From the NCBI RefSeq assembly GCF_964355755.1, contig NC_092676.1:687788-751787 (forward strand): 64,000 bases of DNA. The letters run 5' to 3'. The DNA is from Antedon mediterranea. Its lineage: Eukaryota; Animalia; Echinodermata. Shown piece by piece: positions 24,401 to 64,000 of this stretch. The position numbers and the translations under genes were made by a program. The first letter of the stretch is position 1; each line of letters begins with the position of its first letter. Below the pieces are notes generated by a model. The model had not been told where the DNA came from. It worked only from the letters and a program-made list of their open reading frames with translations, and made no database searches.

Positions 24401-27400
24401 AAGTGTTATCTACAAAAGAGAAAATACAAAACTTTTTAAAAAAAGTCTTTAACTGTTCCTTTTTAAAATGCTGTGGTATATGTAAGTACACCAAGTTCCA
24501 CTGCCACTAAAATAAGTTCAAAACACATATGAAGTGTTAACTACTAACTAACAGTGATTATCAGTGTTTGGGAAAATTAAAATTAGGATAAAAGTTCCTT
24601 CTTACCTTCTGGAACGTCATCTTCGTAATCATCGTCCGAATCGTCGCCCCAACCAAATATGCGGCTGAACCAGCCTTTCTCAGATTCTTTTTGGAGTTCT
24701 CGTTCTCTTCTTAGTGGCGCTTGCTTTGCAAACTGAAAATTTAAAACTTATCATGAGAATATAATTAAAAGTATCTTCAACTGATCAATGAAACAAATGA
24801 GAATGAGCTATTAGCTTTTTGTGGTAGGGTGGTTAGTTCCTTTCCATGCAGCCTTCCTCCATGGTATTTTTCAACCAGGTACTCATTTACAGTCGAGTGG
24901 ACTGGGAGTTGTTATTGGAACTTATATTATATACTTATATTATGGAACCCAGATTTTTCTGCATGATGTATAGTGATGATGTACAGTACAGTACTTTTAA
25001 TCAGTATATTAAAGAACTTGAAATGTAACTCATTACCTCAATCTTTGCTTGTTCTCTTGCAAGTGTAATACTTGTCACATCCAGTTTTTCCTCCAGATTT
25101 CTCAGCTCTTTCTCGATTCTTTTTTTCACATCATCATCTGCTTTGACCCGTTCTAACTTGTCTTTATATTTACTCCTGTACGCTCTGTAATATTCTCGAT
25201 GTTGTTTCATGTGTTCCCAAGACCAGGGTTTAATGTACTTGTCCACCATGCTGTTATATGCATACATCCACCTGAACAAAATACAAACATTAGTAAACCA
25301 TTACAATTTACAGAGACAGTAGGCCAAATACATTTAAATACAAGTAAATATTTAAAGATTTATCAAAAAAATATATGTATTATTTGTGGAAAACTAATAA
25401 ACAAACAAACAAACAAAACTAAATAAGGTAACTATTGTGTCCAGAAGCTGAAATCAGGGGGTTTGCATTACTACGACAGTTTTGCGAAAAAATGTTTAGT
25501 AATCACCGGGTTGGACGCGACCTCTAGATCACAAGATGGCGACTATCTCTAGACAACTAAGCTTACACTGTCAGATTCAAGCTAAAGGAAGCAGTAGGTA
25601 CTGCACCAACATGCTGATACCTTAAAGCGTTCCTTTTGTTTCTTTTTCTTTTTCCTTTTTTTTTCTTTTTTCTGAATACTGCTTCTGCGATCCTTAAGGA
25701 TTAAAACAAGCAGAGTTTGTGCGCATGCGGGGTCCTTTGAAATTTAGTCTCTGAATTTAGGTGATAACTTCTTTGAAAGATTCATTTTCTTTAATGTTCT
25801 GTATATTTGGAGGTAGTTCGTTCCAGTCCCTAGTTGATCTGGGCACATATGAGAACTTGTAGGTATCAGGTTCCCACTCTAGAGATGCAACGGAGGGACG
25901 TACGCGCAATGCAAGCAAGTTGACCAATGACAAGCCACTGTTCAATGCTTGTGTTGCATCCTTGCGTTGCGTCGCTAGTTGCAAATAAGCTTTAGTACCA
26001 ATAATCGAAATCATTGTGTAGGCTTATATAGATAAGTATAAATTTCTTACCATGCTTTGGGGTCTTTCTTCACAGATACTGTTGGTTGGTATTTACGATA
26101 CACTGTGTTCACTTTCATCAACTGTAGCGCTTCTAAAAGGTCCAGAATATCTAAATACTGTGATCTACCAAGACCCAAATTTATCTCCTCGGTGTTGATA
26201 TCTACTGTCAAGCGAGGGCGCATGTACATACTGTCAGATTTATCATACGTTATCCGTGCTCTGGTTGTGACAGGCTCAAGAACTAGAAATTTAGAAGAGT
26301 ATAATTATATTGATGATTTAACTGTCTTTTAATAAATTTATAAACAGTAGCAGGAGGAAGATGCCATGTGTGGGAGACATTCAAACAGCCTGCTACATCA
26401 CCTAGACTGTTTCATTTTCCTTTGAGGGGTGTCCATATTTTGGGAATAATGGCAGTTGTTTATTCAGTTACTGCAATCATGCAAAATTATACAGTAAATA
26501 GAAAAACAAGAATTATTCAGTTTTTTTTAGAGAATAGAAACAGATTAGCAACTTACTAAATTGCAAATCTTCATACATAATCTTGTTATCAATAAGAGCT
26601 TCTTTCATAAAGCTCATCCACAACTCATCTTCAATATGCTCTGTCAAAAGTTGTTTACAATCAGTATTCATGTATATACTTAAGTTTGTGACTTGAGCAA
26701 GCTGTGAAAGTAAATTGATTTTATCCATTATTCATGAATTAGCTCATAAAAAAGGTAAATGTAATTAAATGTAGAGTGAACACAAACACAATGTGCAAAT
26801 TGAAAAAATAAAAATAAATATAAATGTTGAACTTTGTCCGAAGGTTGTTAAAATGCAAGAATAGGAGGCAATTTAAGTACCTGTCATATCGTACTTAAAC
26901 ACCACGTACATTTTAGAAAATTGGAAATGATTTTATTATTAGTTAACACAAATTAATTCAGATTATTTAATTGAATAAAAAAAAAATCTATATTTATATG
27001 TATGCAGCAACATGATGATGAAGCCCCCCCCCCCCCACCCCTCATTATGTAAATTTTTAAATATGTCTCAGTCTCTGAAACCATTATCATAATGTGATAT
27101 GATTGGTTTAAATGAGTAGTATTTGTAAACATACCTTCCTCATGACAAGAGCAGATGCATCGGCCAGTGTTGCTTTCCATAGCTCATCAGTTGTCTAAAC
27201 AAAATAAACAAACATTAAAATATGAAAACAACATAATAAACAAACAATTACAACATGAAACAACATAAACAAACATTACAATATAAAAACACCTATAAAA
27301 AAAAATAAACTAGGCCTATAATGTTGATAAAAGAATTTATTCATAGGATTTATTCATAGGATTGAGGGAAAAAAATGAAAACATCAAAATGATTTTTAAA

Positions 27401-44497: not shown

Positions 44498-45231
44498 TAT
44501 ATAATGGATTACTGTATTTGGCCACATTTTTTTTGTCACAAAGTTTGATAGTGTAGACAGAGCTTTACAACTAGAACAAGGGTTGAATTGAGAAGCAACA
44601 TAAATTTTTAAGGATAAATTTGTTAGTTAAAATGTTACATTTTTAGTTGTTAGAAATACAGTAGGCCTAACTGAACACATCAATTTGCATAACATATCCA
44701 AATGCATGTACCTTGACAAAATAGTTGACTCCATTTACCAGCTGAGTTGCATATACCTTTGCCTCATATTTTTCAAACGATCGGCCCACTTCCTTTTCAG
44801 CCTCCTCGCGTACCTTTTTATAAAATAAATAAAAAAACCATTTTATTATTAAAATTATTACAATTTTAGATATATTTAATAATATGCAAAGGCCTAGCCA
44901 CACTTATAATATAGGCGTGTAGGTGCAAAAGTGCATTACTTACGAGTCTAGGCCTAGGGCCTACTTACTACATCAGATACGATTACTCTAACCACAGTAC
45001 CTGCTATACTATACTACTAGCCTATATACAGACTATTTACTACTACTAGTAGGCCTAGCCTAGGCCTACTACTAGTACAGTACTACTATATAGGTAGGCC
45101 TAGCCTAGCCTACTAGTAGCCTAGCTGGTAACTGTGTAGGCTTCATACTCTATATGTCTCACCTTGTCAATAAAACCCTGTATTTCTGCTGTTGCCACTT
45201 CTGCACCTTTCATACCACCACACAAAGCCAT
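44312..45231 (-). CDS. Type-1 cystatin (stefin; cystatin A/B-like), 95 aa, 3 exons
   Basis: Exons 45163-45231 (MALCGGMKGAEVATAEIQGFIDK), 44712-44813 (VREEAE...YATQLVNGVNYFVK, QxVxG motif) and 44312-44428 (VNTGSNYVHMRLYKPF...DELAYF*). Introns are phase 0 GT-AG, and there is no signal peptide. Confidence 0.93.
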
Positions 45232-46150: not shown

Positions 46151-48424
46151 TTAGCTTTTTTGTTCAAAATTTTCATTATTTGGGATGTATGTAAATGAGA
46201 CGGCCTGACTTCCACCATTATCTGAAGGCCGTATCAACTTAAAATAAACTTGTTTAGGTTCCGTAATGTTACCATCTTTGTAAGGAGGAGTCGTGCACAC
46301 AATAGCAACCTGAAAAAGACAAAAATAGAAGCATTTCAATAAACGTGACACAGAGTAAAACATTGAATTTGTGGTGACCTATGACCTATTACCTTCTTGA
46401 TTACTGTACTTGCTTGATGGGTCATAGAAAAGCTTACAATATATCATGTAAACCACATACAAAGAATTCATAATAAATAACTCATGCTGTCTGGACCACA
46501 AACAGATAAGCCTGGAGGGTTCTTAAGCTTTTTCTACATTATCAAACTAGTTTGACAAAAATGGTGTGATGTGTCCAAATATGGTAGTGATATGCTTAAA
46601 TATGCTAGTGGTATGACATCATCATGTCCATATATGGGCACATCAAATGTTTTTGTCACATAAAGTGTGATAGTGTGAACAGAGCTTTAAATTGTAATGT
46701 TTACATGCACTATACATGACACGTGAATCTTGTGCTGTAAGTTTGTTTAAAAAACATGTTATGTACCAATATAGTTATATTTCACAAGAAAAACAATACA
46801 TCATTTTATAAAATGAAAAAAAAAATAGTTTACCCGACGGTGAATATCCGATGGATTAACTTGAGCAAATTCTGACCAATCAGCATCAAAGAACTTCACA
46901 GCTATATCATCTAATTTTTGAAAAAAATTAATAAACTCTTATAAACCTTTTATTAAACTGTTATATATTTTTAAAATTAACTTTCACACGTTGAATTATA
47001 TATATGATATTTTACTGTCATGTTTGTTTGTATTCATGAAATTTGCATTGTTGACACATAAAATCACAGTAAATTATAAATATATAAACACAAGAATAGT
47101 TTTCTGATTCTATTTGTATGACTGAGTATCAATACCTCTTTGTATTTTGCTACACAGGATAAACACTTTATCTCCGCCACGAGCAAAACCTGTACGGCGA
47201 TCAATCTGTATCACTGCTGGGTAATCTAATTGCAACACAAAATGATAAAAAAATTAACTTTATATAAATAATAAACAGAAAGACATTCTAAACCTACCAC
47301 AAAAAAAAATGACTAAATGCATGATAAAGTCAAAATCTGAACTTTTGAAATAATGTGTCTCAATTCCTCATATATGCAGACAACTGTATTTGGCCTAGGT
47401 TTAAATATTAGCTCTGTCAGCCTAATAAAAGATGAGATTGAAACGAGTTGTTCTGTTTATTAAGTGTATTTCAATAGAAGCTTCAGAATAATGTATATAA
47501 ATGTTACTACTTTTAAATTAAAAAAAGTAAATTATATAAAGTAAAAAAACTCACTTTTATCAAATATAGGCTGACTAACAACCGGAGCGAGAGGCACAGT
47601 TTCACCGGCCTCCTGAACCAGGTACACTTGAAAGCACAGACACACAACGGTGAGGTCAAACAGTCCGATAAGTTTCTTTCGGTCAGTAGTGGTCAGTTGA
47701 AAGTTTTTGAATGGGTTAACACCCTGATTGAGACGTACCAACAAAGCACTGAATATCTCATCTTGCTTTATACGCTGAACGCCAAGATGTTCAAATCTAA
47801 ACAGAATATGACAATATATTTAATTCAATTCAAAATCCACAATTATTCAGTAGGTAGGAAAAATAAATTAATAAGGTGGAATGGTACTTTATTAGCAGTA
47901 CCAGCTTCTTTTCAATTTGTACTTGGACAAAAAAATAAGTAAAACAATTATTAGTGCTTGTAAGACAATTAAGTACTAAATAACATACTTGATTGGCTGG
48001 CCTGCATTTGGCACAAACTTCTTACAGATTCCATTTTCACAGTCTTTACCCACAAGGCCATATGGATGTGGAATAGGCTTTGATGTTCCAGTCTCATTTG
48101 TAACCAGAGATACAACTACTCTTACGCTGCCTGTGTAGTTATTAACCTGTAAGGTTAGTGACAGTTTAGAAAACAAAAAAAAATGGCAGAGGTAAAAACT
48201 ACAGTAAAGAAATTGACAGAAAAATGGATGTGAGAAAGCTTTAATGATGGAAAAAGACAACAATTTTATAAAAGTATAACAAACCTGGATTGTTGGAAAA
48301 CTTTTATTTTTTGAGATTGACTTTTCCTCATATTGAACTTTCACCTTATAGAACCTGAAGTCCCTCTGTTTTGGTTCTTCTATAATCTCAGTAAACGGTT
48401 CTTCCTCTGAACAAAGCAAGTTAC
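46151..48424 (-). CDS. Rel homology DNA-binding and IPT dimerisation domain exons, copy 1
   Basis: [87 protein letters not shown] and RPSD...[10 protein letters not shown]. Confidence 0.92.
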
Positions 48425-51400
48425 CTGTAAATTTATCATAAGTCAATGTAATATTAAAAACAATTACTGCTATTATATTATTACTTATGACTGAACAGTG
48501 GCCATATTGTATTCACCATTAACAGTTAGGCTAAGTGAAATACCTTTAGAATAAAAACTCTGCTGACCCAAGTGACATGTACATATTACTACTGTATATG
48601 ATTCAATTAATCAAGGATGTGTATTACTAGTACCTGTATAATTAACTAAAATTGACAGAAATTCATGATACATTGTTGTAACTATAAAAGTTTGTTATTT
48701 AGGGTACAATAAAAACTTCTCACCAAATTCTGATTTTACAGGCAGGAATACCAAATTTTGAGATGATTCTGAAAATAGAAACATGGTACTTAAATGGGCT
48801 GAGTAAACTCATTAGCTTTGGACTAGTGAAATAAAAATGTCAACCAAGTCGACAACCAATGACCTAACTGGGCCACTGGGACATCATCTTACCATCAGAT
48901 TCAACTTCACGTTTCACATTTAACAGTTTCTCCTGTACAGGTGATTCCTGGGCAACAGGCAGGCAATGTATAGGTCGTTTCTGGGCAACAGGCAGGCATT
49001 GCGTAGGTGGTTGCTGGGCAACAGGAAGGTAATCCATAGATGGTTGCTGGGCAACAGGCAGCCAATCCATAGGTTGTTGCTGGGCAACAGGCAGAAAATC
49101 CATAGGTGGTTGCTGGGCAACAGGCAGGCAATGCGTAGGTGGTTGCTGGGCAACAGGCAGGAAATCTGTAGGTGGTTGTTGGGCAACAGGCAGACAATGT
49201 GTAGGTGGTTGCTGGGCAACAGGCAGACAATGTGCAGCTGTTTGTTGGACTGGCAGTTCACAAGTTGGCTGTCCATGTGTAGATGGCTCATTGGTGTATG
49301 GTGTTCTACAGGGAGGTTGTTGGGGAGATCCAGCTGTTTGTCCTGATGGCATCTCTTTATTTAAATCTGCAAAAGAAAAAAGTGTTAAACCTATACTGCC
49401 TCCCCCTAAAGTCTTGTCTTCTCTACTAGCATTGCAAACTATCAACTATTTACAACTATCTACAATTGCCACTATTACTAATATCATTAACATTACCGTT
49501 ATTAACTGCTATGTCGTCATCATCATAATCAACATCATCATTATCATCATAATCACTATAATCAGACGAGTCTTCAGATGCTGATGATCCAATTACTAAA
49601 TCATTTGAAGATTCTGTTTAAAAATAAATTAGCAAAAAAGATTGAAAATATATCAAATATATTCTTTATATTATTAATAACTGAACTACAACTATGCTTA
49701 TCTATCAAGCATGTGCTTATGTTGCTTAGCTCACAAAACATACCGTGGTCTAGCTTTGCCTTCTTTGATAATTCTGAACTTTGAACTTTACCTACAAAAT
49801 GAGAAAAAGTCATTAAAGCGTAATTCCTACTTTCTAATTAACACACGTATTTTGTATATTTCATTGCATATCATTTGAAAACCTTTGTGCTCAATGCAAC
49901 ATCATGATTTAGTCATCAAGATATTATAGATTGGCTAGAGGGCAGACTCTTGACTGGGAAGTGATTCCAATAGGATGAGTAGTGCATGATTGTATAGGAG
50001 GTGTGACTGGTGTATCAATTGGTCGTATTGTATCATATTGTTGGTTCCCTCTAAACGAAGTATAACTTATTAACTATTTTAGTAAGAGTAGAGTTCACCC
50101 TCTAGTCAATCAGTAATATCTCAATTGATTCAGGTCACATGTGGGCTTGTATTTGGGAATTTGCCTAGATACAGTAAAATCGGTTAGTAATCTTACGTTT
50201 TACGGATGTCTTCACCATCTGGTTAAATTTAGTGCTTTCATTAGGATCTTCTGAAATAAAATTATGTAAATATATATATATCGGGAGATTCCAGCATTTA
50301 TCGGTATACTCCAGAATTTATCGGGAAACTCCAGCATTTATCGGGAAACTCCAGCATTTATCGGGAAACTCCAGCATTTATCGGGAAACTCCAGCAAATA
50401 TCAGGAGATTACAGAATTTTTGGGAGACTCCAGCATTCATCAGGAGAGGGAGGTGTGGTCCTTAAAATGTACATTTACTAAATGACAATGACAACAACTT
50501 ACTTGACATAACTTGGTCCGAGTTACTTGTCATTGATGTTGTAGATGATTCGTCTCTGTTGTCTAACGAAAAAAAAAATATATATATCAGAAAAAATTGG
50601 GGGACATTTATTGAGAGGGGGAGGTCTGGTTCTGGATATCCTTAAAAATAAGAAAGAATGTATTTAACAAAAGGCAACTTACTTGGCATAACTTCACCTG
50701 AGTTACTTTTCGTTGATGTTGTTGCTAAAGACGACGTTTCGCTGTTGCCTACCAAAAAATAAACATACTAGTCTAATTAAAATATTTGCAGAATAGATAC
50801 CGGTTTCCTGCTCTTCAAGTCCAAACTACACTTAACAATTCCAAACTACTCAATAATAAATTTAATCCTGGCGAGTAAACTGGAGCAAAGAAAACAATGT
50901 TATACCTTTTGTTAGAGCTTCCACTGCAAGTGGAACCTGAAGCGTTTTCAATTTCTCAATGAATGATTCCATTTTCCCCTCACAAATGACCCGCCTATGT
51001 TCAAGATCCATGATCAGGTTCCACACATCAACATACTCTTTAACAGGATCATTGTAACACTCACTGATTTTAGCCACATCAGCCTGTCGCAACACCATTC
51101 CAAGCATCACCACTTGTTGGCGATGACAGCTAAACTTTGATAATACAATGTCACGAACATTCGGGCATGATGGAATCAGCCGCTTAAGTTTTTCCACTAA
51201 GCCAAACTGCTTGGTTGCCTTTATGGTGTCGTATATCAGAGTGAGGTTACTGGGACTAAGATCTCCTGAGTCTATCAATAGATTCAGCAATTCAATCATT
51301 TTAGTAGCATTATCCAGCTCAAAGTTGCTTGCCACGTGGTCTTGGTACAACACTTTTAGCCAGTTGATATATGGACGTCGATCATACCACAGCGAAACCT

Positions 51401-53254
51401 CTGATAAAACATTCTTAAATTGTTCATCTGTTACTATAACAAGAAAAAAAAGTGATAATATAAAAATTTGTTTTCTTTTTCTGGGATGACAGTGTTTTTA
51501 CGGAATAATTTAGAGTAACTTACCTGTTGTACCATGGTCCAGCTTTGCCTTCTTTGATAATTCTGAACTTTGAACTTTACCTACAAAATAAGGAAAGAAA
51601 GGTCAAGAAAGGTTCAAAAGATTTATATATTTTTAAGTAACAAATGTAATTTTATATTTTTATTTTTGTTTTAATTTATTCTATTTAATTGCCCTAAATG
51701 ATTCGGAAACCTTTTTAGCTAAATGAAAAATCATTGCTTAGTTAATAATTTTTTTTTCCAATCTGAGACGGGAGTATCTACAGAGGAATTCAGATCTAAA
51801 ACCCAGACCGCCATATTCTATTATAACATCTAAATACATTCTTGTCATTTGATTCATTGAAACATACATGTCAAGTTTGAAACACTGTAATTTCCAAAAT
51901 GTCCCAACCGGGTAACCCCCTGCATCCACCTTATCAATCACTTTTATTTTAAGATTAACAGTACTTTACTTTTTTTTTGTCAATAAATCTTACACTTACA
52001 GGAAATTACATGAAAATTGAACTGTTGTACTGACAAACTTTACATTACATCGCAAGATTTAAATTTGATTCACTTACAATCAACTTCTGTTTGTGAACTG
52101 ATCCTTTTAGAAAGATTACCCGAAATACCATCATTTGATGACGCAACGACTTCTGTAACTTTGTTAATTTTTGGAGCTATTGTTGTTGTAGAACTCGACA
52201 CAACCTTCATCTTTGGATTGTTATCAGGGATATGTAAAATAAACATCGGCCTGCTTGTTTGAAAGGTATATGGCATAACCGATGATGATGTTCCTGTAAC
52301 CGGCATAATGTGGCGGTTTGGAAATTCTGCCTCATGAAGTATTGTGCAAGTTGTAGCTTTCAGACTGTGATTTGTGTATTTTTTTAAGCATCCAGCTTTT
52401 TCAGAAATCGTTTTCATCTTGCTTCCAAGCGTATTCACACCCAACGGCGCATCGATGTACCACGGAGTTCCGTCGTTTGGCGCCGCAAATCTCGGACGCT
52501 GCCACATACATTTCATGTCTGGGTTTAACACTTTTTTTAATGCGAGGAAACTCGAGACGGGGCACCTATTTGAACCGGGAATTTCGTGCATATGTCCGCT
52601 ACAGTCCTTATTAGGATCATTCTTACATCTAGATTTGGTCATGTTGTCACGATGCACAATGTAACGAAGATTTTTATCATCGACTTCAACAAAGAAATCG
52701 GAAATTGACATGCCTCGAAGGTTCTCTCTTCCACAGTTACCAAAGCGTATCATAATATCAATAAAAACTTTATTTTGCAGTCCCTCAGGTGTGGTAAGAT
52801 CCAAAGAGTCAAGTATTTTCTTCATGTCATCTTCAGTCACTGCTTGTTTGTGTCGCACGCCACCTTTGCCGAGTTTTTTAAGCTTAACAAGCATGGCTTT
52901 ATATGTTTTATCACTTTCTTTGAAGACCCAACTTTGAGTGATATCCACACATTTTTCAGCCATAAAGTGTCGGCCTAGCCCATATCGAATTGCATGCATC
53001 GTTTTTCTCGTGTACAATTCCCCATTATCTCTGCGTAGACCTCCATAGAAGCGACTCAAAAAACAATCAAGTTCTGTCGTATCTAGGCTTTCTACGTCCG
53101 CTAAAGTTGTACTTACAGCAATAGCAAAGGCTTCTAGCCTACTGACTGCATATTTGATTTGTTTTTTAGTGTTTGACGATTCTGGTGCATCATCATGTAA
53201 TCTAGCAATGTCTTCGTCGCTCAAAAGAGCAAAATTGCAACCGGATTCCGCCAT
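46151..53254 (-). CDS. Predicted multidomain protein (about 1163 aa): DUF3504/tyrosine-recombinase fold, tandem DED-like, Q/P-rich linker, Rel homology domain and IPT
   Basis: Phase-consistent GT-AG exons 52078-53254, 51524-51580, 50906-51433, 50683-50748, 50503-50562, 50197-50250, 49744-49791, 49497-49613, 48893-49366, 48724-48768, 48285-48424, 47989-48146, 47555-47796, 47136-47225, 46834-46910 and 46151-46309 sum to 3492 nt with one terminal stop. The join of the first exon is inferred. Confidence 0.7.
46525..46688. mobile_element. MITE-like element copy (intron of Rel copy 1)
   Basis: Same terminal inverted repeats and internal GATGTGTCCAAATATGGTAGTGATATG...GACATCATCATG as 39146-39309. 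Confidence 0.7.
50281..50440. promoter_or_regulatory. Intronic 20-bp minisatellite carrying six kB-consensus sites
   Basis: GGGAGATTCC (50283), GGGAAACTCC (50323, 50343, 50363, 50383) and GGGAGACTCC (50422) all fit GGGRNWYYCC. Confidence 0.55.
50906..51433 (-). CDS. Exon encoding two death-effector-domain-like (death-fold) helical repeats
   Basis: FKNVLSEVS...LKVLYQDHV..LDNATKMIELLNLLIDSGDLSPSNLTLIYDTIKATKQFGLVEKL, then FSCHRQQVVMLGMVL...DVWNLIMDLEHRRVICEGKMESFIEKL. The pattern resembles caspase-8/cFLIP tandem DEDs; no HMM was run. Confidence 0.7.
52078..53254 (-). CDS. Crypton/DUF3504-like tyrosine-recombinase-fold exon (KCTD1/ZMYM/QRICH1-like), catalytic motifs degenerate
   Basis: Motifs LSRFYGGLRRDNGELY, GLQNKVFID, GRENLR, CPV, WQRP, WY..PLGVNTL and YTNHSLKAT. 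The ATG is in a good context (ACAATGG), and the ORF ends on a consensus donor T|GTAAGT at 52078/52077. Confidence 0.85.
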
Positions 53255-53705
53255 TGTTGTTCGTTCGCGTTCAGCGATTGCATATAGCGAAATTCAACGG
53301 CGGCCATATATACCATAATAATTGAACGCTTGATGACGTAGCCTAGGCCTCCAGGTTCATTTGCGTATTTATTGAATACCATGTGACCCACAATCATCCA
53401 ACCAAATGCAGAGTTTCAAGTTTCTCAGATAAATTAAGTAATGTTGATAACAATTAAATAATTCAAAGACATTTTATACGCCCAACAAAAGCCAAATAAA
53501 GATAGAACAATTATCGGGACAATTGAAGTAAAAAACAAAGATAAAACTGGCGGGATTGCCTAATTAATAATACCTGTACAATAATTGTTATCTTAACAAT
53601 GAAATAATGCGGAATAAATTATTTTTATGAAGATGAAGAATTATTTTGTGGCTTTTTGACTTTGTGGTGCAGCATCGCAACACGACCGCAACAGCACAAC
53701 GACCA

Positions 53706-53810
53706 CCACGTGCTGCAGCTCTGAGACGATCGGGGAAAACCCTGGAATCATGAGCGACTACCACGTGCTGCTGCAGCTGAGACGCGTACGATCGGGGAAA
53801 ACCCCGAAAT
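53706..53810. promoter_or_regulatory. Duplicated E-box plus kB-like module upstream of the YR-DED-Rel gene
   Basis: CACGTG at 53707 and 53762; GGGGAAAACCC at 53732 and GGGGAAAACCCC at 53794. These lie in a CpG-rich patch about 450-550 bp upstream of the ATG. Confidence 0.55.
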
Positions 53811-55073
53811 CAGCGGTCATCTTAACAACTCATAACCACCGGATATTCGCCCGATTATGATACCAGCCAGAATAACAAATCTACCAGACGACTGGGTACT
53901 AGTAATTAGGAATTGCTTATAATTAATCATTGATGTGAAAGGCTTTGAATTAAAATTCTTTCATAAACCGGTAAAATGAATATACTGTAGGCCTACTGTA
54001 GTTTATTGCAGCTCCTCGCCATCATAATTCCATATAGGCCTACAGAAGGTATATCCGCATCCGTTACGTCTCGTGTGTATACTATATTGCGTTCTTGGAA
54101 ATGAAATACACCATTGTTTTGTTGAATTTTGAAAAATAATATTTATCATTATGTTTTTATATGTAAAAACTAATTAGATAGATGTGGCAGAGATAAATCT
54201 GTTTAGCTGGCCACCCACAAATCTCTATTACTCTACTAATAATCATTAATTAAACCAATAATAATTAATGCATACATTATATTATTATTATGACAAGAAT
54301 CTACTTAGGTGTGTTACATAAAATACTGTACCAATATTAGCTGTGTAAAATAACGTTTGACTAATAAGGAATTCCATTTTTTAAGAGAGAAAAATTTGAC
54401 TATTGCACATGAAAATAATTATTAAAAGCGTATTGTCCCAAGATTAATAAAATCAGACTTTGGAAATGCCATTGTGTAGTTGTATTAAGTTAATTTGAAT
54501 CACTTCATCAAAAAAAAAAAAATGATTTCACTTTATCATAAAATAACAAAATAATTGGTTAAATAAAAAAGCCATTATTTCAGGCAGAACATTTTTTTTC
54601 AGGTAAATTTGTTTGCGTGTATAACTATTATCTGACATTAAAATGGAATTTAAATAAAGATGTTGTACTAAACATAAAAAAAGAACAAAACCAGCAGATT
54701 TAGACACAGAGTCCAATTTGGAATGATTGGCATAAATAATAAAGATGTATGGTTCCCCTGACAAAAATTGTTTTACATTTTTGTTGTTGAATATGCCATT
54801 TTAATGTTACATAATAGTTATCCACCTTGACCAAAAATTGGATGTAAACAAAATTGATTTACCTGAAAAAAACTGTAATTTAAAGCAAAAAATGGTTAAA
54901 TTGGTTGACAGCCAATGGATTTTTGTTTGAATTCAACCATTTAATGTTTTTTTATAAGTGAAAACATTATTTGTTTTCTTTTTTTTTCAATGGAAGTGAT
55001 TAACAAGTTATTAAAACTACAAAAATATATATATATAACATATCCAAAGACTGATTTAATTAATCTTAATTTT

Positions 55074-56324
55074 TCATGTTTTTTGTGGACAATACATCTT
55101 TAACATATAAATGAAGCAATTTTTGTAAAAGTGACCTATGACTCTACTTCTGTTAACATGATCCATGTTGTTTACATCCTGGTGAGTTGATTGAGAAGTT
55201 TCTAATGTTGTTGTTGGTGTGAGGTAGCTTGGTCCTGCTGTTGGTGTGAGGTAGCTTGGTCCTGCTGTTGGTGTGCGGTAACATGGTCCTGCTGTTGGAC
55301 TAATGGTACAGACTGGTGTACTGCTAGCACTGTTATTGAATTTGTCCGACAGACACAAACTCATACTCCGTTGAACGTAGTGTTTAATACTGGCTTCAGA
55401 TTTGTGCCCAGAAATGGACATGATGTGCCTTGGTGCAAATCCTTCGTTACCCAATGCATGAATCGTTGTAGCCCGCAGGCAACTGTTAGTATATATTTTA
55501 GATGTTCCGGCTTCACGACAAATATTATGCATTTTTGCTCCTAATGTGTTTTTACCCAACGGCATATTATTGTACCATACCACATTATTATCCAAAACAG
55601 TATTTTTAGGCCGCTGCCAAAATGTGTCGTTTGCTGGATCAAGGTGTGAGGTGTACTTGCAGTAGGCAGCTACAGGGCAGTCTGGCAGGCAGGTTTCATA
55701 CATTCTTCCGGAGTCATCTTTAGTCTGAGCAAAGTATACATATCTCTGATTTGTTGAGGAATCAGAAGTCATGGCAAAATCAGTTTTTAAGAAACTACGC
55801 AGATTTCTCCTACTACTAAGACTGTTGTTGCATAAATGAAGCATAAGATCAACAAACACTTTATTTTGGAGTCCCCTCGGCGTGTTCACGTTCAACGCAG
55901 AAGAGGCTTTTATTTTTAAAAAGTCCTCTTTAGAAATTGGGTCTTTCGGTGACCCACATCCTTTCCCAGACAATTTAATTTGCATAAGGACCGTTTGATA
56001 CATCTCATTAGCTTGCTTAAATTGTGAATCATTTACAATGTCAATTGTCTTCACCTTTTTAAAGTGTTTCTGTAGTCCGTAGCGTAGAGTTATCATCGAT
56101 CGTTTAGCATACAATTCACCGTTTGATCTCTTCACCTCGCCGAAGAATGACCGTAGAAACGCGTTGAGCTGGGGTGCTGTGAACTTTTCAATGCACGCAA
56201 CTGACGATCCCTTAGCCTTACAATATTCATTGAGTATATTGACCGAGGAAGTCACAACATGTTTTGTAGACAGAGAGTCCTTTTCGTCTAAGCCTAATTC
56301 TTCTTCATCATTTGAAGCAGCCAT
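55074..56324 (-). CDS. Second Crypton/DUF3504-like tyrosine-recombinase-fold ORF (about 416 aa from the ATG at 56324)
   Basis: FLRSFFGEVKRSNGELY, GLQNKVFVD, CPV, WQRP, WYNNMPLGKNTL, YTNSCLRATT and SGHKSEASIKHY. The first ATG is in an AAAATGG context (the ORF track opens at a GTG at 56432). The 3' end may be spliced. Confidence 0.85.
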   Translation of the reverse strand: MAASNDEEELGLDEKDSLSTKHVVTSSVNILNEYCKAKGSSVACIEKFTAPQLNAFLRSFFGEVKRSNGELYAKRSMITLRYGLQKHFKKVKTIDIVNDSQFKQANEMYQTVLMQIKLSGKGCGSPKDPISKEDFLKIKASSALNVNTPRGLQNKVFVDLMLHLCNNSLSSRRNLRSFLKTDFAMTSDSSTNQRYVYFAQTKDDSGRMYETCLPDCPVAAYCKYTSHLDPANDTFWQRPKNTVLDNNVVWYNNMPLGKNTLGAKMHNICREAGTSKIYTNSCLRATTIHALGNEGFAPRHIMSISGHKSEASIKHYVQRSMSLCLSDKFNNSASSTPVCTISPTAGPCYRTPTAGPSYLTPTAGPSYLTPTTTLETSQSTHQDVNNMDHVNRSRVIGHFYKNCFIYMLKMYCPQKT

Positions 56325-58139
56325 TTTCAAACAGCTTATTCCTGGGCTGTCCACTCCTTTCTCACAATAATCAATTTTAGATCGATCGTCCAGGCCACTT
56401 TCAAGAAAACTCGCGGAAGGGAGACCAGTCACTATTCCAACAAAATTTCCCTAACGGGGAGACTCATATAACGTTTTGGATTCTGACCACCAATCACGTT
56501 CGAGTATTTACACAGGGGGTCGTGAGAAAACTACGGAGTCTATAAAGGGACATGCATAAATAAAAAAATATGTTTTTAAACGCAGTACATGAAATTAATT
56601 GTGTATAAATAATTAATATAAAATATAATTGTATTTTATTGGAATGCAAATGCAGTATGTACTTTTTATAAATACAGTAGTTTAGTTTTAAGAATTACTG
56701 ACTCTTATGAATTTAAAAGGCCCTATTTTCCTGGTCCTGCACCTTAGGCATGGGGGATACCTATTTTTTAATTGGTCAAATAAATAAATGAAATAAATAT
56801 TATTTCGTAGTACAGTATTAAGAATTATGAAGGTAGAGCCTACAGCTGAGTTTTCCCAAAAAGTTTGATAGCTTATCACTTCTGATAAACAAAAACAAAA
56901 TAATACACAAAACACAACAATCTTTTTATAAACAAGTTGAGGTTATTCATTTCGTTTTTACTACCGTACATAAAGAAACTATAGAGTGCAGATAAGAAGA
57001 ACTTAGTCCATTCCTGCCATGCTAGATCAAGATGGCATTTGGAGACATACCTCACATTGCATTATTGTTTTACTGGCACTATCTGGAATGTATAGTTATA
57101 CTGTATAAAGATTGAAAATGTACTGTGTATTAGAATGACAATACAGTATCATTTAAAATACTCTTATCTTATGTACGGGGCGCCGGTCGGAGCACTACTA
57201 ATAATAATATCAATGGCACCCCGTAGCTATGTGCGCAATCTGACATTTTATAAAATATTAACACTTATATTAGTAATATTATTGATAGTAAACAACTGAT
57301 TAATATATAAAATCACACATTTTCAATGTTTGAATAAACTTTTGTCAAAAGCAATAAGGTTGATTAGTATTTAATTGATAAGTTTACTTTTAACTGGATT
57401 TCTATAGAATTAATTTTTTTTTATTTGAATCAACATGATCAATGTTGTGTCACTACCTAATAGACCTTCACTTTCACGACGTGCCATTTGGCAATCATGT
57501 TGAAATGTCCTTATGCACATGCTCAGAAACATACAGCATGCATAGCATGACTATTAGACTCAATAGCTACATAGAGACAAAATTAATAATTTATCGTACT
57601 GGATACAATATTATGTGAAAATTAATATTTAATCTTGGATGGATCTATGAAATACTGTTTTAAACACAGCATACACTTTTAATTTGTCTATAAATGAAAA
57701 ATACACATTTTTAGTAGGTTATTTACAATACAGGAGCACGACACGGATTGAGGTAGTTCCAAATACACAAATAAATGATATACAAACTTAGGTTTCTCCT
57801 ACAAAATATAATGCCAAGTAAAAAGTATTAAGCCACATACAGCAGAGCAGGTCCATCACATCACCGTGTGTGTGTGTGTGCAAGTTCACTGAATATTTCA
57901 GCATTCACAATTTGTTTGTTCAGTGTTTTTAACACAACAACTTTTGAAGATGTTCAAATTCTAATTAATTCATAAATATTTACAACCAAATTCATTAGTT
58001 CTTCAGCATAAAATCACACCACTCATTATCACTAAAATATCATTAAACAAATTCTACAATGTAATATCTATACATCAGTAGTCACCTTGTTACACAAGTA
58101 TAAACATCTGATACATGTTACCAACTAACACTGTGCTCA

Positions 58140-58469: not shown

Positions 58470-61400
58470 TTAGCTTTTTTGTTGCAAATGTGCCTTATGT
58501 TTTGATTTCTTATTTGGCACATACGTAAATGAAACGGCCTGACTTCCATCATTATCTGAAGGCCGTACCAACTTAAAATAAACTTGTCTAGGTTCTGTAA
58601 TGTTACCATCTTTGTAAGGAGGAGTCCTGCACACAATAGCAACCTGAAAACAGACAAAAATAGTTATTATTTGACACAGTACCTATAATTATTGTGTCTC
58701 TAATAACTAACATTAAGTAAAAGAATGAAGGAGGAATCAAGTCCCATGACAATGTTCATGCATCTGCAGAATGAATTGCTGTAACTAGTTTCTAGGTCAA
58801 TAACTCCTATCTCAACCACAGACAAGCAGATAAGTCTATAACATGAACACATATTTAGTGGCTTTAGTAGTAGTCTACAAGCACATGCACACACAATAAA
58901 ACAAATAATATACAATTCTGTAACATTAAGAGTAATACCTGACGGTGAATATCCGATGGACTAAAACGAGCGAAATCTGACCAATCAGCATCAAAGAACT
59001 TCACAGCTATATCATCTAATTATTGATTAAAAAAAAAAATTTCAAATATATTTATACAGAAAATTAATTTATTTAATAATTCATTAATAATAAATTATTT
59101 TTTAAACCACTTTCATTCTTTAATTAATATTTTATCTTTCTAGACTAAAATATATTTTACAATACGTAAATAAATGAATAAAGTACAGCTTTTTAATTAT
59201 AGTATAATATTATTTGTATGACTGACTAACTATACAAACCTCTTTGTATCTTGCTACACAGGATAAACACTTTATCTCCGCCACGAGCAAAACCTGTACG
59301 TCGATCAATCTGTATCATTTCCAATGCTGGGTAATCTAGTGAAAACAAAATAATAATGACAATGAAATAAGCTTTAAATGCGAATTAAACTGGAGTATTC
59401 TGCTTTCTACGCAGAAAGCCCACCTTCTGGATTAAACTTGTTGGCCTTGGTTCAAATATTAGCTCTCTCAGCTGAATATTGGGATTTTGCCAAAACGGTT
59501 CCACTAACTAAGGCCTAGATTAAGGCAAGTAAATAAATCTAGGGGAATAACCTGCGATTCGCAGCCTACTGGGCTAATTTGCACACAGGTGTGGACGACA
59601 CATACTAGGGACAATAATAGGGACTTTACAAAATAGGACGTTTAGGGGAGGATGAGGGAGATTCTGTGCTTGCTAGAGCGTAAAATCCTAAACAGATGAT
59701 ATAGCCATTTTATTAGTTACGAACAAATGGTTGTTGAGTAAGACTCACTTTTATCAAATATAGGCTGACTAACAACCGGACTGAGAGGCATGTCCTCACT
59801 GCCCTCCTTAACCATGTACACTTGAAAGCAGAGACACACAACGGTGAGGTCAAACAGTCCGGTGAGTTTCTTTCGGTCAGTAGTCGTCAGTTGAAAGTTT
59901 TTGAAAGGGTCAACACCCTGATTGAGGCGTACCAACAAGGCACTGAAAATCTCTTTCTGTTTTATACGCTGAATGCCAAGATTTTCAAACCTACAATGAT
60001 TGATGAAATAATAAATTCATATCACATTATAAATGCTAATGACTTGTTTTGGTTATTGTAGGATACTATATCTCTTGGACATTCTCTGTTTATGTGTAAA
60101 ACATTTGGTTTTAGGCACTATAAAGCTCTGTCTACACCATCAAATCTATGTGACAAAATATGTGATGTGCCAATATATGGACACAATGATGTCATATCAT
60201 ACCATATTAAAGCATCTCTGCCATACATCACACTTTTTTGTCACATAAAGTTTGATAGTGTAGACAAAGCTTAAGACAACCATTTTTTTTTCATTCATCT
60301 TCATCCATTCATCTTTTTATTTTGGAATATTATGATTACATAATATATCCATAATTAACATTAGATTAGATGACATGAACATAACGACATACTTGATTGG
60401 CTGGTCTACCTTCCGCACAAACTTAACATTAACATTAGATAGATGAAATGAATCTAACATACTTGATTGGCTGGTCTACCTTCTGCACAAACTTAACATT
60501 AACATTAGATAGATGAAATGAATCTAACATACTTGATTGGCTGGTCTACCTTCTGCACAAACTTAACATTAACATTAGATAGATGAAATGAATCTAACAT
60601 ACTTGATTGGCTGGTCTACCTTCTGCACAAACTTAACATTAACATTAGATAGATGAAATGAATCTAACATACTTGATTGGCTGGTCTACCTTCTGCACAA
60701 ACTTCTTACAGATTCCATTTTCACAGTCTTTACCCACAAGGCCATATGGATGTGGAATAGGCTTTGATGTTCCAGTCTCATTTGTAACCAGAGATACAAC
60801 TACTCTTATACTTCCTGTGTAGTTATTGACCTATTGCAAAAGATTGGCAAAGATAATTAACACTATTGTAATAAAATGAACATGGTATATAAGGCATAAT
60901 ACACTGGTCACTTATGGGCTCGAAAAAGATCAACACTATGATCGGAAAAAACAGAGTCCTCAAAACAGATAAATCAAATAATATATATGGACATGATGAT
61001 GTCATAGCACTACCATATTTAAACATATCACTACCCTATTTGGGAACATCACAAACTAGTTTGATAATGTAGACAGAGCTTACGAATTGTAAGTTTAATT
61101 ACTGAGGAGGAAAAGAAAGAGTACACATTTATTTACAAATATGTAATGTAAACACACCCTGATTGTTGGAAAACTTTTATTTTTTGAGATGGACTTTTCT
61201 CCAGAGATGCTTGCAGACCGACCTTCCACTTGGTAGCGGAACCTGAACTCCCTCTGTTTAGGTTGTTCTATTATCTCGGCAAACGGGCCTTCCTGCCGTT
61301 TTGGGCCAAGCCAGTTACCTGTAAAATGAGTTATTTTATGTATTTAGTCACATGTGTGGCATAAAGTCAATACAACTAGAAAGAAGAGCAATTATAACTG

Positions 61401-63837
61401 TTTCAAATAGTTTAACTATGATTATAATCTCTATTCACACTCGGCTAAGAAAAAACCCCATTAAAGTAAACAATTATATCCTATCTACAGTAAGTGAATA
61501 CCACATAAAATAACATCATCAAATATTGTTTAAGTAAAATTCTGTAATTCTAATTTACAAGAAATGTCTCACTTGAAATTGAATATTATTTAAATCTGTA
61601 ATGTTATATTTTAAAAAGTTAAAAAAAAAAAATCCTCACTAAATTCTGATTTGACGGATGATCCAGATGCGGAGCGTGACGATACCATCGAAAGTAATTC
61701 CAAATTTTGGAACGATTCTGAAAATAGAAACAATGTTCAAATAAGTTTAGTACACTCTTTGAAGTAGTAAAAGAAATGCACAATACTAAAACATTAATGT
61801 GTCAATATGATATAACTGTACCACTGCTAGATCCAACTTCACGCTTCAAATTTAACGGTTTCTGCTGTACAGGTGGTTGCTGTACAGATGGTTGGTGTAC
61901 AGATGGTGCCTGGCCAGGTGGCAGTCCATGCGTAACTGCTTGTTGGGCTGGCATATGATGATATGATGGTGTGCTAAGGGCAGGTCGTCCGTGGGCAGAT
62001 TTAGGTGCTTGTACAGAGGGTTTCTGTTTGTTCACATCTATAGAAAAAAAGTTGTACAGTTAATTTATTGTCTTGGGTAAATGGATAACTAAGAAGATAT
62101 ACCTTTTAAATTTTATGTTTGCCTTTTGTTTTTGCCTTTTGAGAATTTAATTTATTTTGTTTTGCCTCATGTCACCGCTGTGTCGGTTTTGTTTTTCTTT
62201 TGCATATTTATACGGAATTAAAAAAAAAAATAAAAAAATATAAACCTGACCTAAAAATAATTAGCTTACCACGACTGGCTTTTAAATTGTGTCCATTTTG
62301 GGCTAAAACACATAAAAAGCAAAATATACTGTACTGTTAGACTTAAACTTCAGGACCACAATGGAAATAAGTTTGCCGTCTTTGTACTTTATTGTGTTTT
62401 TATCCTATGATTTTATGTCAGAATAAAGTAATAAAAATGAAAATAAAACAAAAAAAAGTGGTAAATATATTTGTAAGATTCTCATCAAAGTCTCCTAGCT
62501 TAGCAAACTATTTACAATTGTCATTATCACTATTTAACAGTCTACATGAAAAACAGTGTTTGCAAATAGTAGTGTTATTTATTTCTTGTGTCAGTGACAT
62601 TACCTTTACTAACTGCTATGTCGTCATCATCACTATAATCAGACCAGTCTTCAGATTCTGATGATGCGATCACTAAATCATTTGACCCTTCTGTTTAAAA
62701 TAAATAAAAGTGAAGAATGTCAACTAATGTAATGAATGTAACTAAGCTATCTTTTTGTAAGCATGTACTTTGTTTAAAGGCCAATCATTTCCACAGACAA
62801 GTGGAAGCGGTAATAACAATATACTGTAGAATCTATGTTATTCCTTATGACCATTACACACAACGCTGATACTGTAGATAGAAATTCTACAAGGAACAAG
62901 CTACACGATATTCCGCTTACCTTTACCACTCACATGTGTAAATTGGCCGTTATACTAATATAAACTTTCCTCAGTTTCCACTTTGCCCATTTTCCAATTA
63001 CAGTTTTCTTTACTTACCTACGTATTTGTGATATATTTCTGGCTTTACAAGATGAGACTTATGTTCATCTTCACTAGTTATAGATAGTTCTTCAGAGTCT
63101 GACGACACATGAGATGAACCATTTGGCTTCTCTGTATAAAAAGAAAAACCCTTTAAAATTGTGTTTGTTTTTAAAATTGCTTGCTCATTTATTTTGAAAT
63201 CTAATAAATTTTCTTTTCATTTATTTTTAATGAAAGATAATTTTTTTTTTGGATGAACTCCTTTTTATAAAGAGAGGAAGAAACGATTCATAACATTAAA
63301 TCACATTGCTTACGTTAAAATAGAGAATGAAATTAAAAACAATTACAGCGACTTACCATGGTTCAGCTTTGCCTTCTTTGATAATTTTGAACTTTCAACT
63401 TTACCTACAAAGGTCAAGAAAGGGTCAGAAGATATTTAAGCATGGTTATTATATACTCTAATATTAATATTTGTACCCTAATGCATTGTTCTCATAAACA
63501 ATGTGCCCTAAGGATTTCAAACCATGTGATTGATTAGCTACTTATGTATTTAGGAATTTGCCTAGATACAGCACAAAACCAATCTTACGTTTTAATGATG
63601 TCTTTACCATCTGCTTGAATTTCATGCTTTCATTTGTTTTATTACTTGCAACTTCTGAAAAAAAAATATGTGTAAATAAACGTTAATAAGACAATTCTGC
63701 TATGACAAAATGCATAAATACTAATCCAAAATAATTTGTATTTCCATCATTAAAACTAAGCGATCTAAATTTACCTTTTTTCTGAGTTTCCAATAACTTC
63801 CTGAATGTTAGACTTTTATTAGCTGGATTTGAAGATT
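58470..63837 (-). CDS. Rel homology domain protein, copy 2 (3' portion; 5' end beyond the window)
   Basis: In-phase exons 63775-63837, 63589-63654, 63357-63404, 63018-63131, 62604-62690, 61822-62037, 61640-61717, 61158-61318 ([27 protein letters not shown]), 60673-60830, 59749-59990, 59240-59335, 58939-59015 and 58470-58643. RHD intron positions match copy 1. Confidence 0.9.
60122..60273. mobile_element. MITE-like element copy (intron of Rel copy 2)
   Basis: AAAGCTCTGTCTACACCATCAAA ... TTTGATAGTGTAGACAAAGCTT. Confidence 0.7.
60355..60704. repeat. 70-bp tandem repeat, 5 copies, containing a Rel copy 2 exon end and donor
   Basis: ACTTGATTGG recurs at 60391, 60461, 60531, 60601 and 60671. Confidence 0.92.
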
Positions 63838-64000
63838 CTGGAAAATTTAAATTTCAGTTTTAACCAAAAAATTATTGCAATTTGATAATTGAATAACTCC
63901 TTCAAAGTAGCTTTGCATCAGGGAGCTAGGTTAATGAATCAGATGTTTTCCCTACTCTGATGTGATTGTACTTTATGCAAAGTAAATTTAAGAAAACAAC

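Follow-up and report, generated by a model that had tools for sequence, protein, structure and literature searches.

The window analysed here, a stretch of 64,000 nt of Antedon mediterranea DNA (NC_092676.1, 687,788..751,787; window positions are used throughout), carries on its minus strand a gene in which a tyrosine recombinase of CryptonA origin is fused to two death effector domains (DEDs), followed by the Rel homology domain (RHD) and the IPT/dimer domain of a Rel protein. Immediately upstream lies a recombinase-free paralog with its own short first exon, the DED-DED-Rel gene P0007 (XP_071955940.1). The model of the fused gene runs from 53254 to 46151 in 16 exons (Table 1) that add up to 3492 nt and encode 1163 aa, with no internal stop and one terminal stop. 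The ends of all 15 introns are GT-AG, the donor of exon 1 is a GTAAGT at 52077 in phase 1, and every exon from 2 to 10 has phase 1 at both ends. Extent, totals, and donor coincide exactly with those of an earlier interpretation made from the DNA letters without database searches (the sequence-only reading). The 1163-aa product is also contained, at 100% identity, in the NCBI model XP_071956065.1 (P0001, 1572 aa, uncharacterised), which places a second recombinase ORF (56324-55136) ahead of it.

Table 1. Exons of the fused gene and associated features of the window.
Feature	Position	Strand	Evidence
Exon 1, tyrosine recombinase of CryptonA origin (aa 1-393, with the core at ~1-331)	52078..53254	-	joint 52078>51580 in X1
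Exon 2, linker exon copied from E7, with its first 40 nt unchanged; acceptor partner of exon 1	51524..51580	-	X1 joints
Exon 3, tandem DEDs (aa 412-588)	50906..51433	-	X1 joints, domain matches
Exon 4, Ser/Thr-rich linker	50683..50748	-	model, X1 joints
Exon 5, linker, diverged duplicate of exon 4	50503..50562	-	model, X1 joints
Exon 6, linker	50197..50250	-	model; E6>E7 joint not listed
Exon 7, linker	49744..49791	-	model, X1 joints
Exon 8, acidic (Asp-rich) linker between DEDs and RHD	49497..49613	-	model, X1 joints
Exon 9, tandem repeat of 11 aa rich in Pro/Gln (8.9 copies of a 33-nt unit)	48893..49366	-	model, X1 joints
Exon 10, linker	48724..48768	-	model, X1 joints
Exon 11, RHD start; DNA-recognition loop replaced and shortened	48285..48424	-	same letters in X1 and X2
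Exon 12, RHD	47989..48146	-	model, X1 joints
Exon 13, RHD	47555..47796	-	model; exon-bounded X1 contig piece
Exon 14, IPT/dimer domain	47136..47225	-	model
Exon 15, IPT/dimer domain	46834..46910	-	model
Exon 16, IPT end; stop at the usual position of the Rel nuclear signal	46151..46309	-	model
GC/CpG-rich duplicated stretch, candidate promoter (weak)	53690..53850	-	sequence scan
Second CryptonA recombinase ORF, different subfamily	55077..56324	-	~2 kb upstream of the fused gene
3' part of paralog P0007 (DED-DED-linker-RHD-IPT, 760 aa, without recombinase); DED and first exon beyond the window	58470..64000	-	sequence match

That the recombinase-DED-DED-Rel fusion is a real, spliced gene can be said with high confidence. 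The stretch is present in five sequencing runs, none of which is on record as RNA; one of them, X1, was taken as RNA solely from its spliced joints and its empty introns, the cover being zero in three intronic bins. The splice-joint check covered positions 47960-53720, which hold 11 of the model introns, the four 3'-most introns and the junction of the upstream ORF lying outside. Within this interval, X1 contigs join 10 of the 11 introns with GT-AG ends, the E6>E7 joint not being among those listed. By comparison, contigs of the runs X2 and X4 are DNA-like and proceed unspliced through 52078 (51560-52900). The three junctions that the sequence-only reading had named for checking, namely 52078>51580, 51524>51433, and 48724>48424, are all joined in X1. 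Transcripts skipping the recombinase exon, or separate transcripts for the DED and RHD parts, had been named as results that would speak against the fusion: no 53574>51580 joint is listed in X1 (contigs cannot prove absence), and no separate DED or RHD transcripts were seen.

Exons 2 and 7 are identical over 40 nt, and the X1 contig that leaves exon 1 reaches 30 nt into exon 2, all within this common stretch; because both exons share the 40 nt, this contig alone cannot tell exon 2 from exon 7. The exon 2>3 joint is present in X1, and, because the stretch common to exons 2 and 7 is entered from exons 1 and 6 alone, a back-splice is avoided only if exon 1 joins exon 2; the depths of the X1 contigs, which pair 10 with 11.4 and 23.1 with 22.9, give a weak hint in the same direction. 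Besides the ambiguous end of the exon-1 contig, the case for the fusion is weakened by its source, i.e., contigs from one RNA-like run of one study, none of which spans the whole gene, and by the contig graph of the DED exon, which is common to the fused gene and its paralog. A different main product, be it one that omits the DEDs by joining exon 1 to exon 7 or the 1572-aa form of NCBI with a doubled recombinase domain, is very improbable. The sequence shared by exons 2 and 7 would permit the former, and the latter agrees with XP_071956065.1 joining the upstream ORF and with the X1 cover of that ORF (55246-56536); however, the extra junction of the NCBI model reads GT..AA in the present assembly, the native start of the recombinase relatives coincides in the alignment with the ATG at 53254, and the exon 2>3 joint needs an upstream feeder. 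If exon 1 is left out, no Met occurs in frame before aa 457, which already belongs to DED1. Another 5' end on a DED exon was considered as an alternative first exon and rejected, since its letters code for the P0007 N-terminus and have no counterpart within the window.

Exon 1 is a single intron-less ORF and derives from a CryptonA tyrosine recombinase. Its structure model (pLDDT 89.6), submitted to a Foldseek structure search, matches Cre over the length of the model (E 1e-7, TM 0.57-0.6), and among its recombinase relatives (4217 representatives at E 0.001) it is nested within animal Crypton sequences having the full catalytic set; its sister group includes the catalytically intact octocoral protein P0144, with support 100/100. 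The Cre-like fold and this nesting agree with the Crypton origin proposed from the sequence. No Crypton terminal repeats were recognisable around exon 1 in a sequence scan. Animal Cryptons reportedly do not have such repeats. Many near-identical copies, which would have marked the exon as a recent insertion, left no sign in the run contigs, a weak argument: over most of exon 1 these are long and single with a depth like that of the neighbouring sequence, four contigs occur near 53147, and depth is not copy number.

The catalytic part was compared in 143 rows, consisting of exon 1 and the 142 of 157 matches that cover it. At the positions of the set R/K/H/R/H/Y, exon 1 has C174, K207, H296, K299, T322, and Y329; three of the six residues are therefore replaced (R174C, R299K, and H322T), and two further residues are deleted just before Y329. 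The full R-K-H-R-H-Y set is kept in 70 of the 143 rows. From these losses, the recombinase of exon 1 would be unable to cut DNA.

Even so disarmed, the exon is probably under selection, the signs of which are an open frame, silent listed variants, and a loss biased toward catalytic sites; this was one of the checks that the sequence-only reading had proposed. The structural residues are retained along with the frame, and none of 2000 shuffles of exon 1 produced a frame free of stops. All four of the exon-1 variants among those listed are silent (P 0.003 by site share), as are the three listed for X1 alone (P 0.014). Private departures of exon 1 touch 3 of 53 conserved columns, two of them catalytic, and, when exon 1 is taken together with its sister, private changes hit 4 of 10 catalytic sites versus 4 of 94 others (Fisher p 0.0026); of the conserved basic columns, 11 of 15 are kept. 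Some observations detract from this view. X2 and X4 each show one further difference within 52882-53394, possibly non-silent; the catalytic enrichment is borderline for exon 1 alone (3/6 vs 6/47, p 0.054); and exon 1 has no CpG depletion (o/e 1.02 vs 0.50), which would be expected of a young insertion and equally of an unmethylated first exon.

The middle part of the protein consists of two six-helix DED-type folds encoded by one exon, i.e., a tandem DED. Among solved DEDs, DED2 finds its top fit in PEA-15 (Z 10.6, rmsd 2.2, 77 aligned), with Z 8.9-9.0 for the caspase-8 and cFLIP DEDs (caspase-8 8.9), and ranks 1-11 of its structure comparison are all DEDs, above DD, PYD, and CARD folds. DED1 has a Pfam match of E 2.5e-5, under the cut-off, and a structure model of low confidence. 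The pair is 92% identical to that of the paralog and 48-53% identical to DED pairs of Anneissia, and it belongs to a crinoid family, four of the six DED matches being other proteins in Anneissia, none with an RHD. The caspase-8 prodomain, cFLIP, MC159, and vFLIP likewise contain tandem DED-type repeats, from which the Antedon pair differs in its low identity (5-16%), in the absence of a caspase domain, and in its crinoid-specific family. Separately, an Anneissia protein (P0010) has the same DED pair joined to a TRIM/NHL-like module. Downstream of the DEDs, a basic motif spans linker exons 6-7 and is, by the known consensus, a candidate nuclear signal of the bipartite-like kind.

At the C-terminal end, the RHD and the dimer domain of the fused copy score 118 and 94 bits in Pfam, respectively, both above the cut-offs; with the Cre-like recombinase model and the fit of DED2 to solved DEDs, the domain order deduced from the sequence is borne out. 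Within the crinoid Rel clade, the two DED-Rel copies share a long branch with support 100/100 (16 rows chosen from the matches), and Antedon also has a canonical Rel (P0024) on another contig. An NFAT-type origin of the C-terminal RHD was discarded, since the paralog matches p65/c-Rel at E 1e-67 and NFAT5 at 6e-4. Relative to RelA/c-Rel and the crinoid proteins P0023 and P0024, with which it shares the RHD-IPT pair and the crinoid Rel clade, the fused copy has its RHD at the C-terminus, behind the N-terminal recombinase and DEDs, and it has lost several elements of the Rel apparatus. The comparison set comprised 120 listed of 206 Rel matches, 119 besides the fused copy. The loop RFRYxCEG occurs in 119 of the 119 others and is absent in the fused copy, whose letters at this place are identical in X1 and X2 contigs; in the paralog the loop is near-intact (RFRYQVEG), with Val in place of the redox Cys. 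This recognition loop is described, in the accessible text of PMC2751831, as required for DNA binding. The basic nuclear signal that follows the IPT domain in 115 of the 119 matches is missing in both DED-Rel paralogs, both of which stop after the IPT domain without an activation tail or ankyrins. Because the loop is lost and the protein ends before the nuclear signal and the activation tail, the fused copy probably does not work as a DNA-binding Rel of the usual kind.

Judged by the conserved columns, the fused copy has taken most of its additional damage in the DNA-binding half (21 of 69 columns changed vs 10 of 69 in the paralog) rather than in the dimer half (18 of 52 vs 15 of 52). The dN/dS of the RHD between the two paralogs is 0.40 (0.23-0.72), a pairwise value over 235 codons outside the loop and the tail. 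However, of the 18 RHD changes that can be polarised, 15 are assigned to the fused copy and three to the paralog, with 30 more ambiguous, so that the constraint on the fused copy itself appears weaker; this lopsidedness is as compatible with relaxed selection or decay as it is with a new role.

The fused gene is a tandem copy of P0007, the dS of the RHD between them being 0.16-0.20, and its exon 2, together with about 40 nt of the acceptor, matches the linker intron of the paralog. All atlas leads for P0007 point to Rel, at values below 0.9. Because the recombinase-free P0007 already has the DED-DED-Rel architecture, the coupling of DEDs to Rel predates the capture of the recombinase. The sequence-only proposal is upheld as regards the spliced chimera; the DED-Rel join itself existed beforehand in P0007. 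In the paralog, five 70-nt tandem copies at 60354-60704 repeat the end of an RHD exon with its donor, offering possible alternative donors.

The birth of the gene may be pictured as follows. A crinoid Rel would have lost its C-terminal half and gained the DED pair by phase-1 exon shuffling, and the resulting DED-DED-Rel gene would then have been duplicated in tandem. Next, a Crypton ORF would have landed upstream of one copy, giving a start codon and a phase-1 donor to a duplicated linker exon, so that the short first exon of that copy would have been replaced by the recombinase exon plus the duplicated linker exon. In the candidate promoter stretch there are one exact kB-consensus site (53796-53805), one near copy, and two CACGTG boxes; the exact site, 550 nt upstream, would suit a feedback control of the fused gene, although this single exact match is not above chance, as 27 of 100 shuffles reach one.

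The architecture is found in Antedon only, among the six DED matches and the 120 listed of 206 Rel matches, in keeping with the lineage-specific status previously attributed to it; a second species with the same fusion was not found among the five long recombinase relatives or the six DED matches, in a collection with few crinoids. Neither DED-DED-Rel nor recombinase-DED-DED-Rel was found described in the literature on DED and Rel homology in echinoderms and invertebrates, on crinoid NF-kB, and on Crypton fusions, subscription journals and supplements lying outside this search; within the same scope, the earlier remark that no described protein with this architecture is known stands, and the parent DED-DED-Rel is itself an architecture not found described. 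DED-headed RIG-I-like receptors are reported in the available text of PMC8662601, with no DED-Rel, and the available parts of PMC13465315 and PMC12062965 contain nothing on DED-Rel. This novelty could be affected by supplementary material, namely the tables of architectures in PMC8662601 and the lists of genes in PMC3212892.

The route of birth is already known from KCTD1. Isoform b of KCTD1 (PMC3212892) resembles the fused gene in that a single-exon CryptonA recombinase lies upstream of a duplicated host gene and provides an N-terminal DUF3504 domain, in that the catalytic set is incomplete, and in that a paralog without the recombinase has survived, KCTD15 in the one case and P0007 in the other. 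The two differ in several respects: the partner is BTB in KCTD1b versus DED-DED and Rel in Antedon, the event is older than 500 My versus young and lineage-restricted (paralog dS ~0.16-0.2), and the catalytic Tyr is lost in all vertebrate DUF3504 domains whereas Tyr329 is kept in Antedon. Unlike KCTD1b, no recombinase-free isoform of the fused copy was seen in the X1 contigs. Host-transposase fusions such as SETMAR, PGBD3-CSB, and KRABINER, as presented in the accessible text of 10.1101/2020.05.07.082677, likewise arose by splicing a transposon domain into a host regulatory gene; they use a DDE transposase, whereas the Antedon case is invertebrate and involves a tyrosine recombinase, and KRABINER uses an acceptor, whereas the transposon exon of Antedon is 5' and gives a donor. 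The word Crypton is absent from that text as available. The Antedon gene offers a young, RNA-supported case of the KCTD1b route beside an intact parent, in which the birth and the divergence of a Crypton fusion can be read stepwise. It also places a transposon domain on the transcription factor central to immunity, the copy concerned being the one whose DNA-reading loop is gone; what a dead DUF3504 recombinase does is testable here by simple domain swaps.

As to function, the chances are about even that the fused protein is a Rel partner unable to read kB sites, which would act as a decoy or re-targeter and damp or redirect NF-kB. Its dimer domain would still pair with canonical Rel or with the paralog, yielding dimers that neither read kB sites properly nor activate; the recombinase, incapable of cutting, would remain a DNA clamp, replacing the lost loop and tethering the dimers elsewhere; and the DEDs would connect the protein to assemblies of the FADD/caspase-8 type. 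A dead recombinase as a substitute clamp would have its analogy in QRICH1, which reportedly holds DNA in this way. In Zincore, as far as the title of PDB 9hjt and the available text of PMC13538652 go, QRICH1 is a dead Crypton recombinase fold that joins a transcription factor on DNA. QRICH1 reportedly works in trans and together with SEPHS1, its targets being zinc-finger factors, whereas the Antedon recombinase is fused in cis to Rel and its DNA binding is only predicted. The sequence-only reading had overlooked the parent paralog, the loss of the loop, the second Crypton ORF 2 kb upstream, and the known KCTD1b route, and the immune or death-signalling role that it proposed is putative. A point against the decoy or re-targeter is the absence of the canonical nuclear signal, which leaves nuclear entry dependent on the candidate motif in the linker.

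A doubtful alternative is that the fusion is a tolerated by-product, in which a Crypton copy gave a promoter and donor to a redundant Rel duplicate that is now decaying, the loop loss being an early step of pseudogenisation. The lopsided RHD changes (15 vs 3), the undepleted CpG of exon 1, the restriction to one species, and the adjoining second Crypton ORF, which marks the region as one that collects such elements, all suit this scenario. What it accommodates less easily is a frame intact over 1163 codons, exon-1 variants that are silent wherever listed, losses biased to catalytic sites, and an RHD dN/dS whose upper bound is 0.72, although this value, being pairwise, is partly that of the paralog.

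Cleavage rather than decoy action is the essence of another proposal, which is improbable: a cytoplasmic death-fold scaffold whose DEDs would bring in a caspase-8-like protease, cleavage of the acidic linker then releasing the RHD half, with the recombinase half being a nuclear anchor or a passenger. Drosophila Relish and DREDD provide the model of a DED-recruited protease freeing an RHD half. The match of the tandem DED fold to caspase-8/cFLIP DEDs (Z 8.9-9.0), the Asp-rich exon 8 placed between the DEDs and the RHD, and a DED-Rel layout older than the recombinase capture are all in its favour. Yet the freed RHD would have neither recognition loop nor activation tail, both the cleavage and the DED partner are purely putative, and the selection on exon 1 is left unexplained.

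Recombinases related to exon 1 occur in other fusions as well. Among the five long relatives found, the recombinase is N-terminal to an inositol-dehydrogenase-like enzyme in Holothuria leucospilota (P0002/P0012; a genome model and a 2334-nt assembly contig) and N-terminal to fumarase in models of Asterias rubens and A. amurensis (P0004/P0015). The dehydrogenase and fumarase fusions suggest a recurrent capture of Crypton first exons in echinoderms. The Holothuria exon, 63% identical to exon 1, is its sister with support 99/98 when the catalytic columns are removed (22 rows), and the two share R174C and four other rare states, which were not shown to be shared with the octocoral P0144. Either an old dead module would have moved between genes, or a horizontally spreading family would have decayed alike twice; these cannot be told apart. 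A bolder and rather unlikely extension is that the dead Crypton exon is a portable N-terminal module of echinoderms, which in Antedon replaced the DNA-reading loop of Rel and so would send DED-controlled NF-kB dimers to transposon-derived sites. In a scan for partner domains covering 34 long recombinase relatives, chosen by length from 150, most have no second family, while KRAB, ATF7IP, C2H2 fingers, MIEAP, THAP/DDE, and MULE occur once each; the fusions with KRAB, ATF7IP, C2H2 fingers, and MIEAP are in P0167, P0280, P0217, and P0182. In Asterias, a doubled recombinase heads a DDE nuclease (P0003/P0019).

The second Crypton ORF of the window is 35% identical to exon 1; its frame is open, its first Arg region and His are altered, and the variants listed for it comprise three silent ones in the recombinase part and one non-silent in the tail. 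At 54440-55067 and 46520-46690 there are high-copy MITE-like elements, which contain nested inverted repeats and reach very high depth in every run, and a cystatin/stefin-like exon is located downstream of the fused gene (44670-44903, minus strand). Farther away, exons of a VPS13-like gene extend over about 1100-25300 on the minus strand, with weak Pfam matches at 7603-7989 and 25004-25300; apparently inside it, on the same strand, lies an intact 922-codon non-LTR ORF with endonuclease and reverse transcriptase (21401-24166). Near-perfect satellite arrays with 27-nt and 54-nt units, at 13900-14850 and 15050-17370, create long spurious ORFs.

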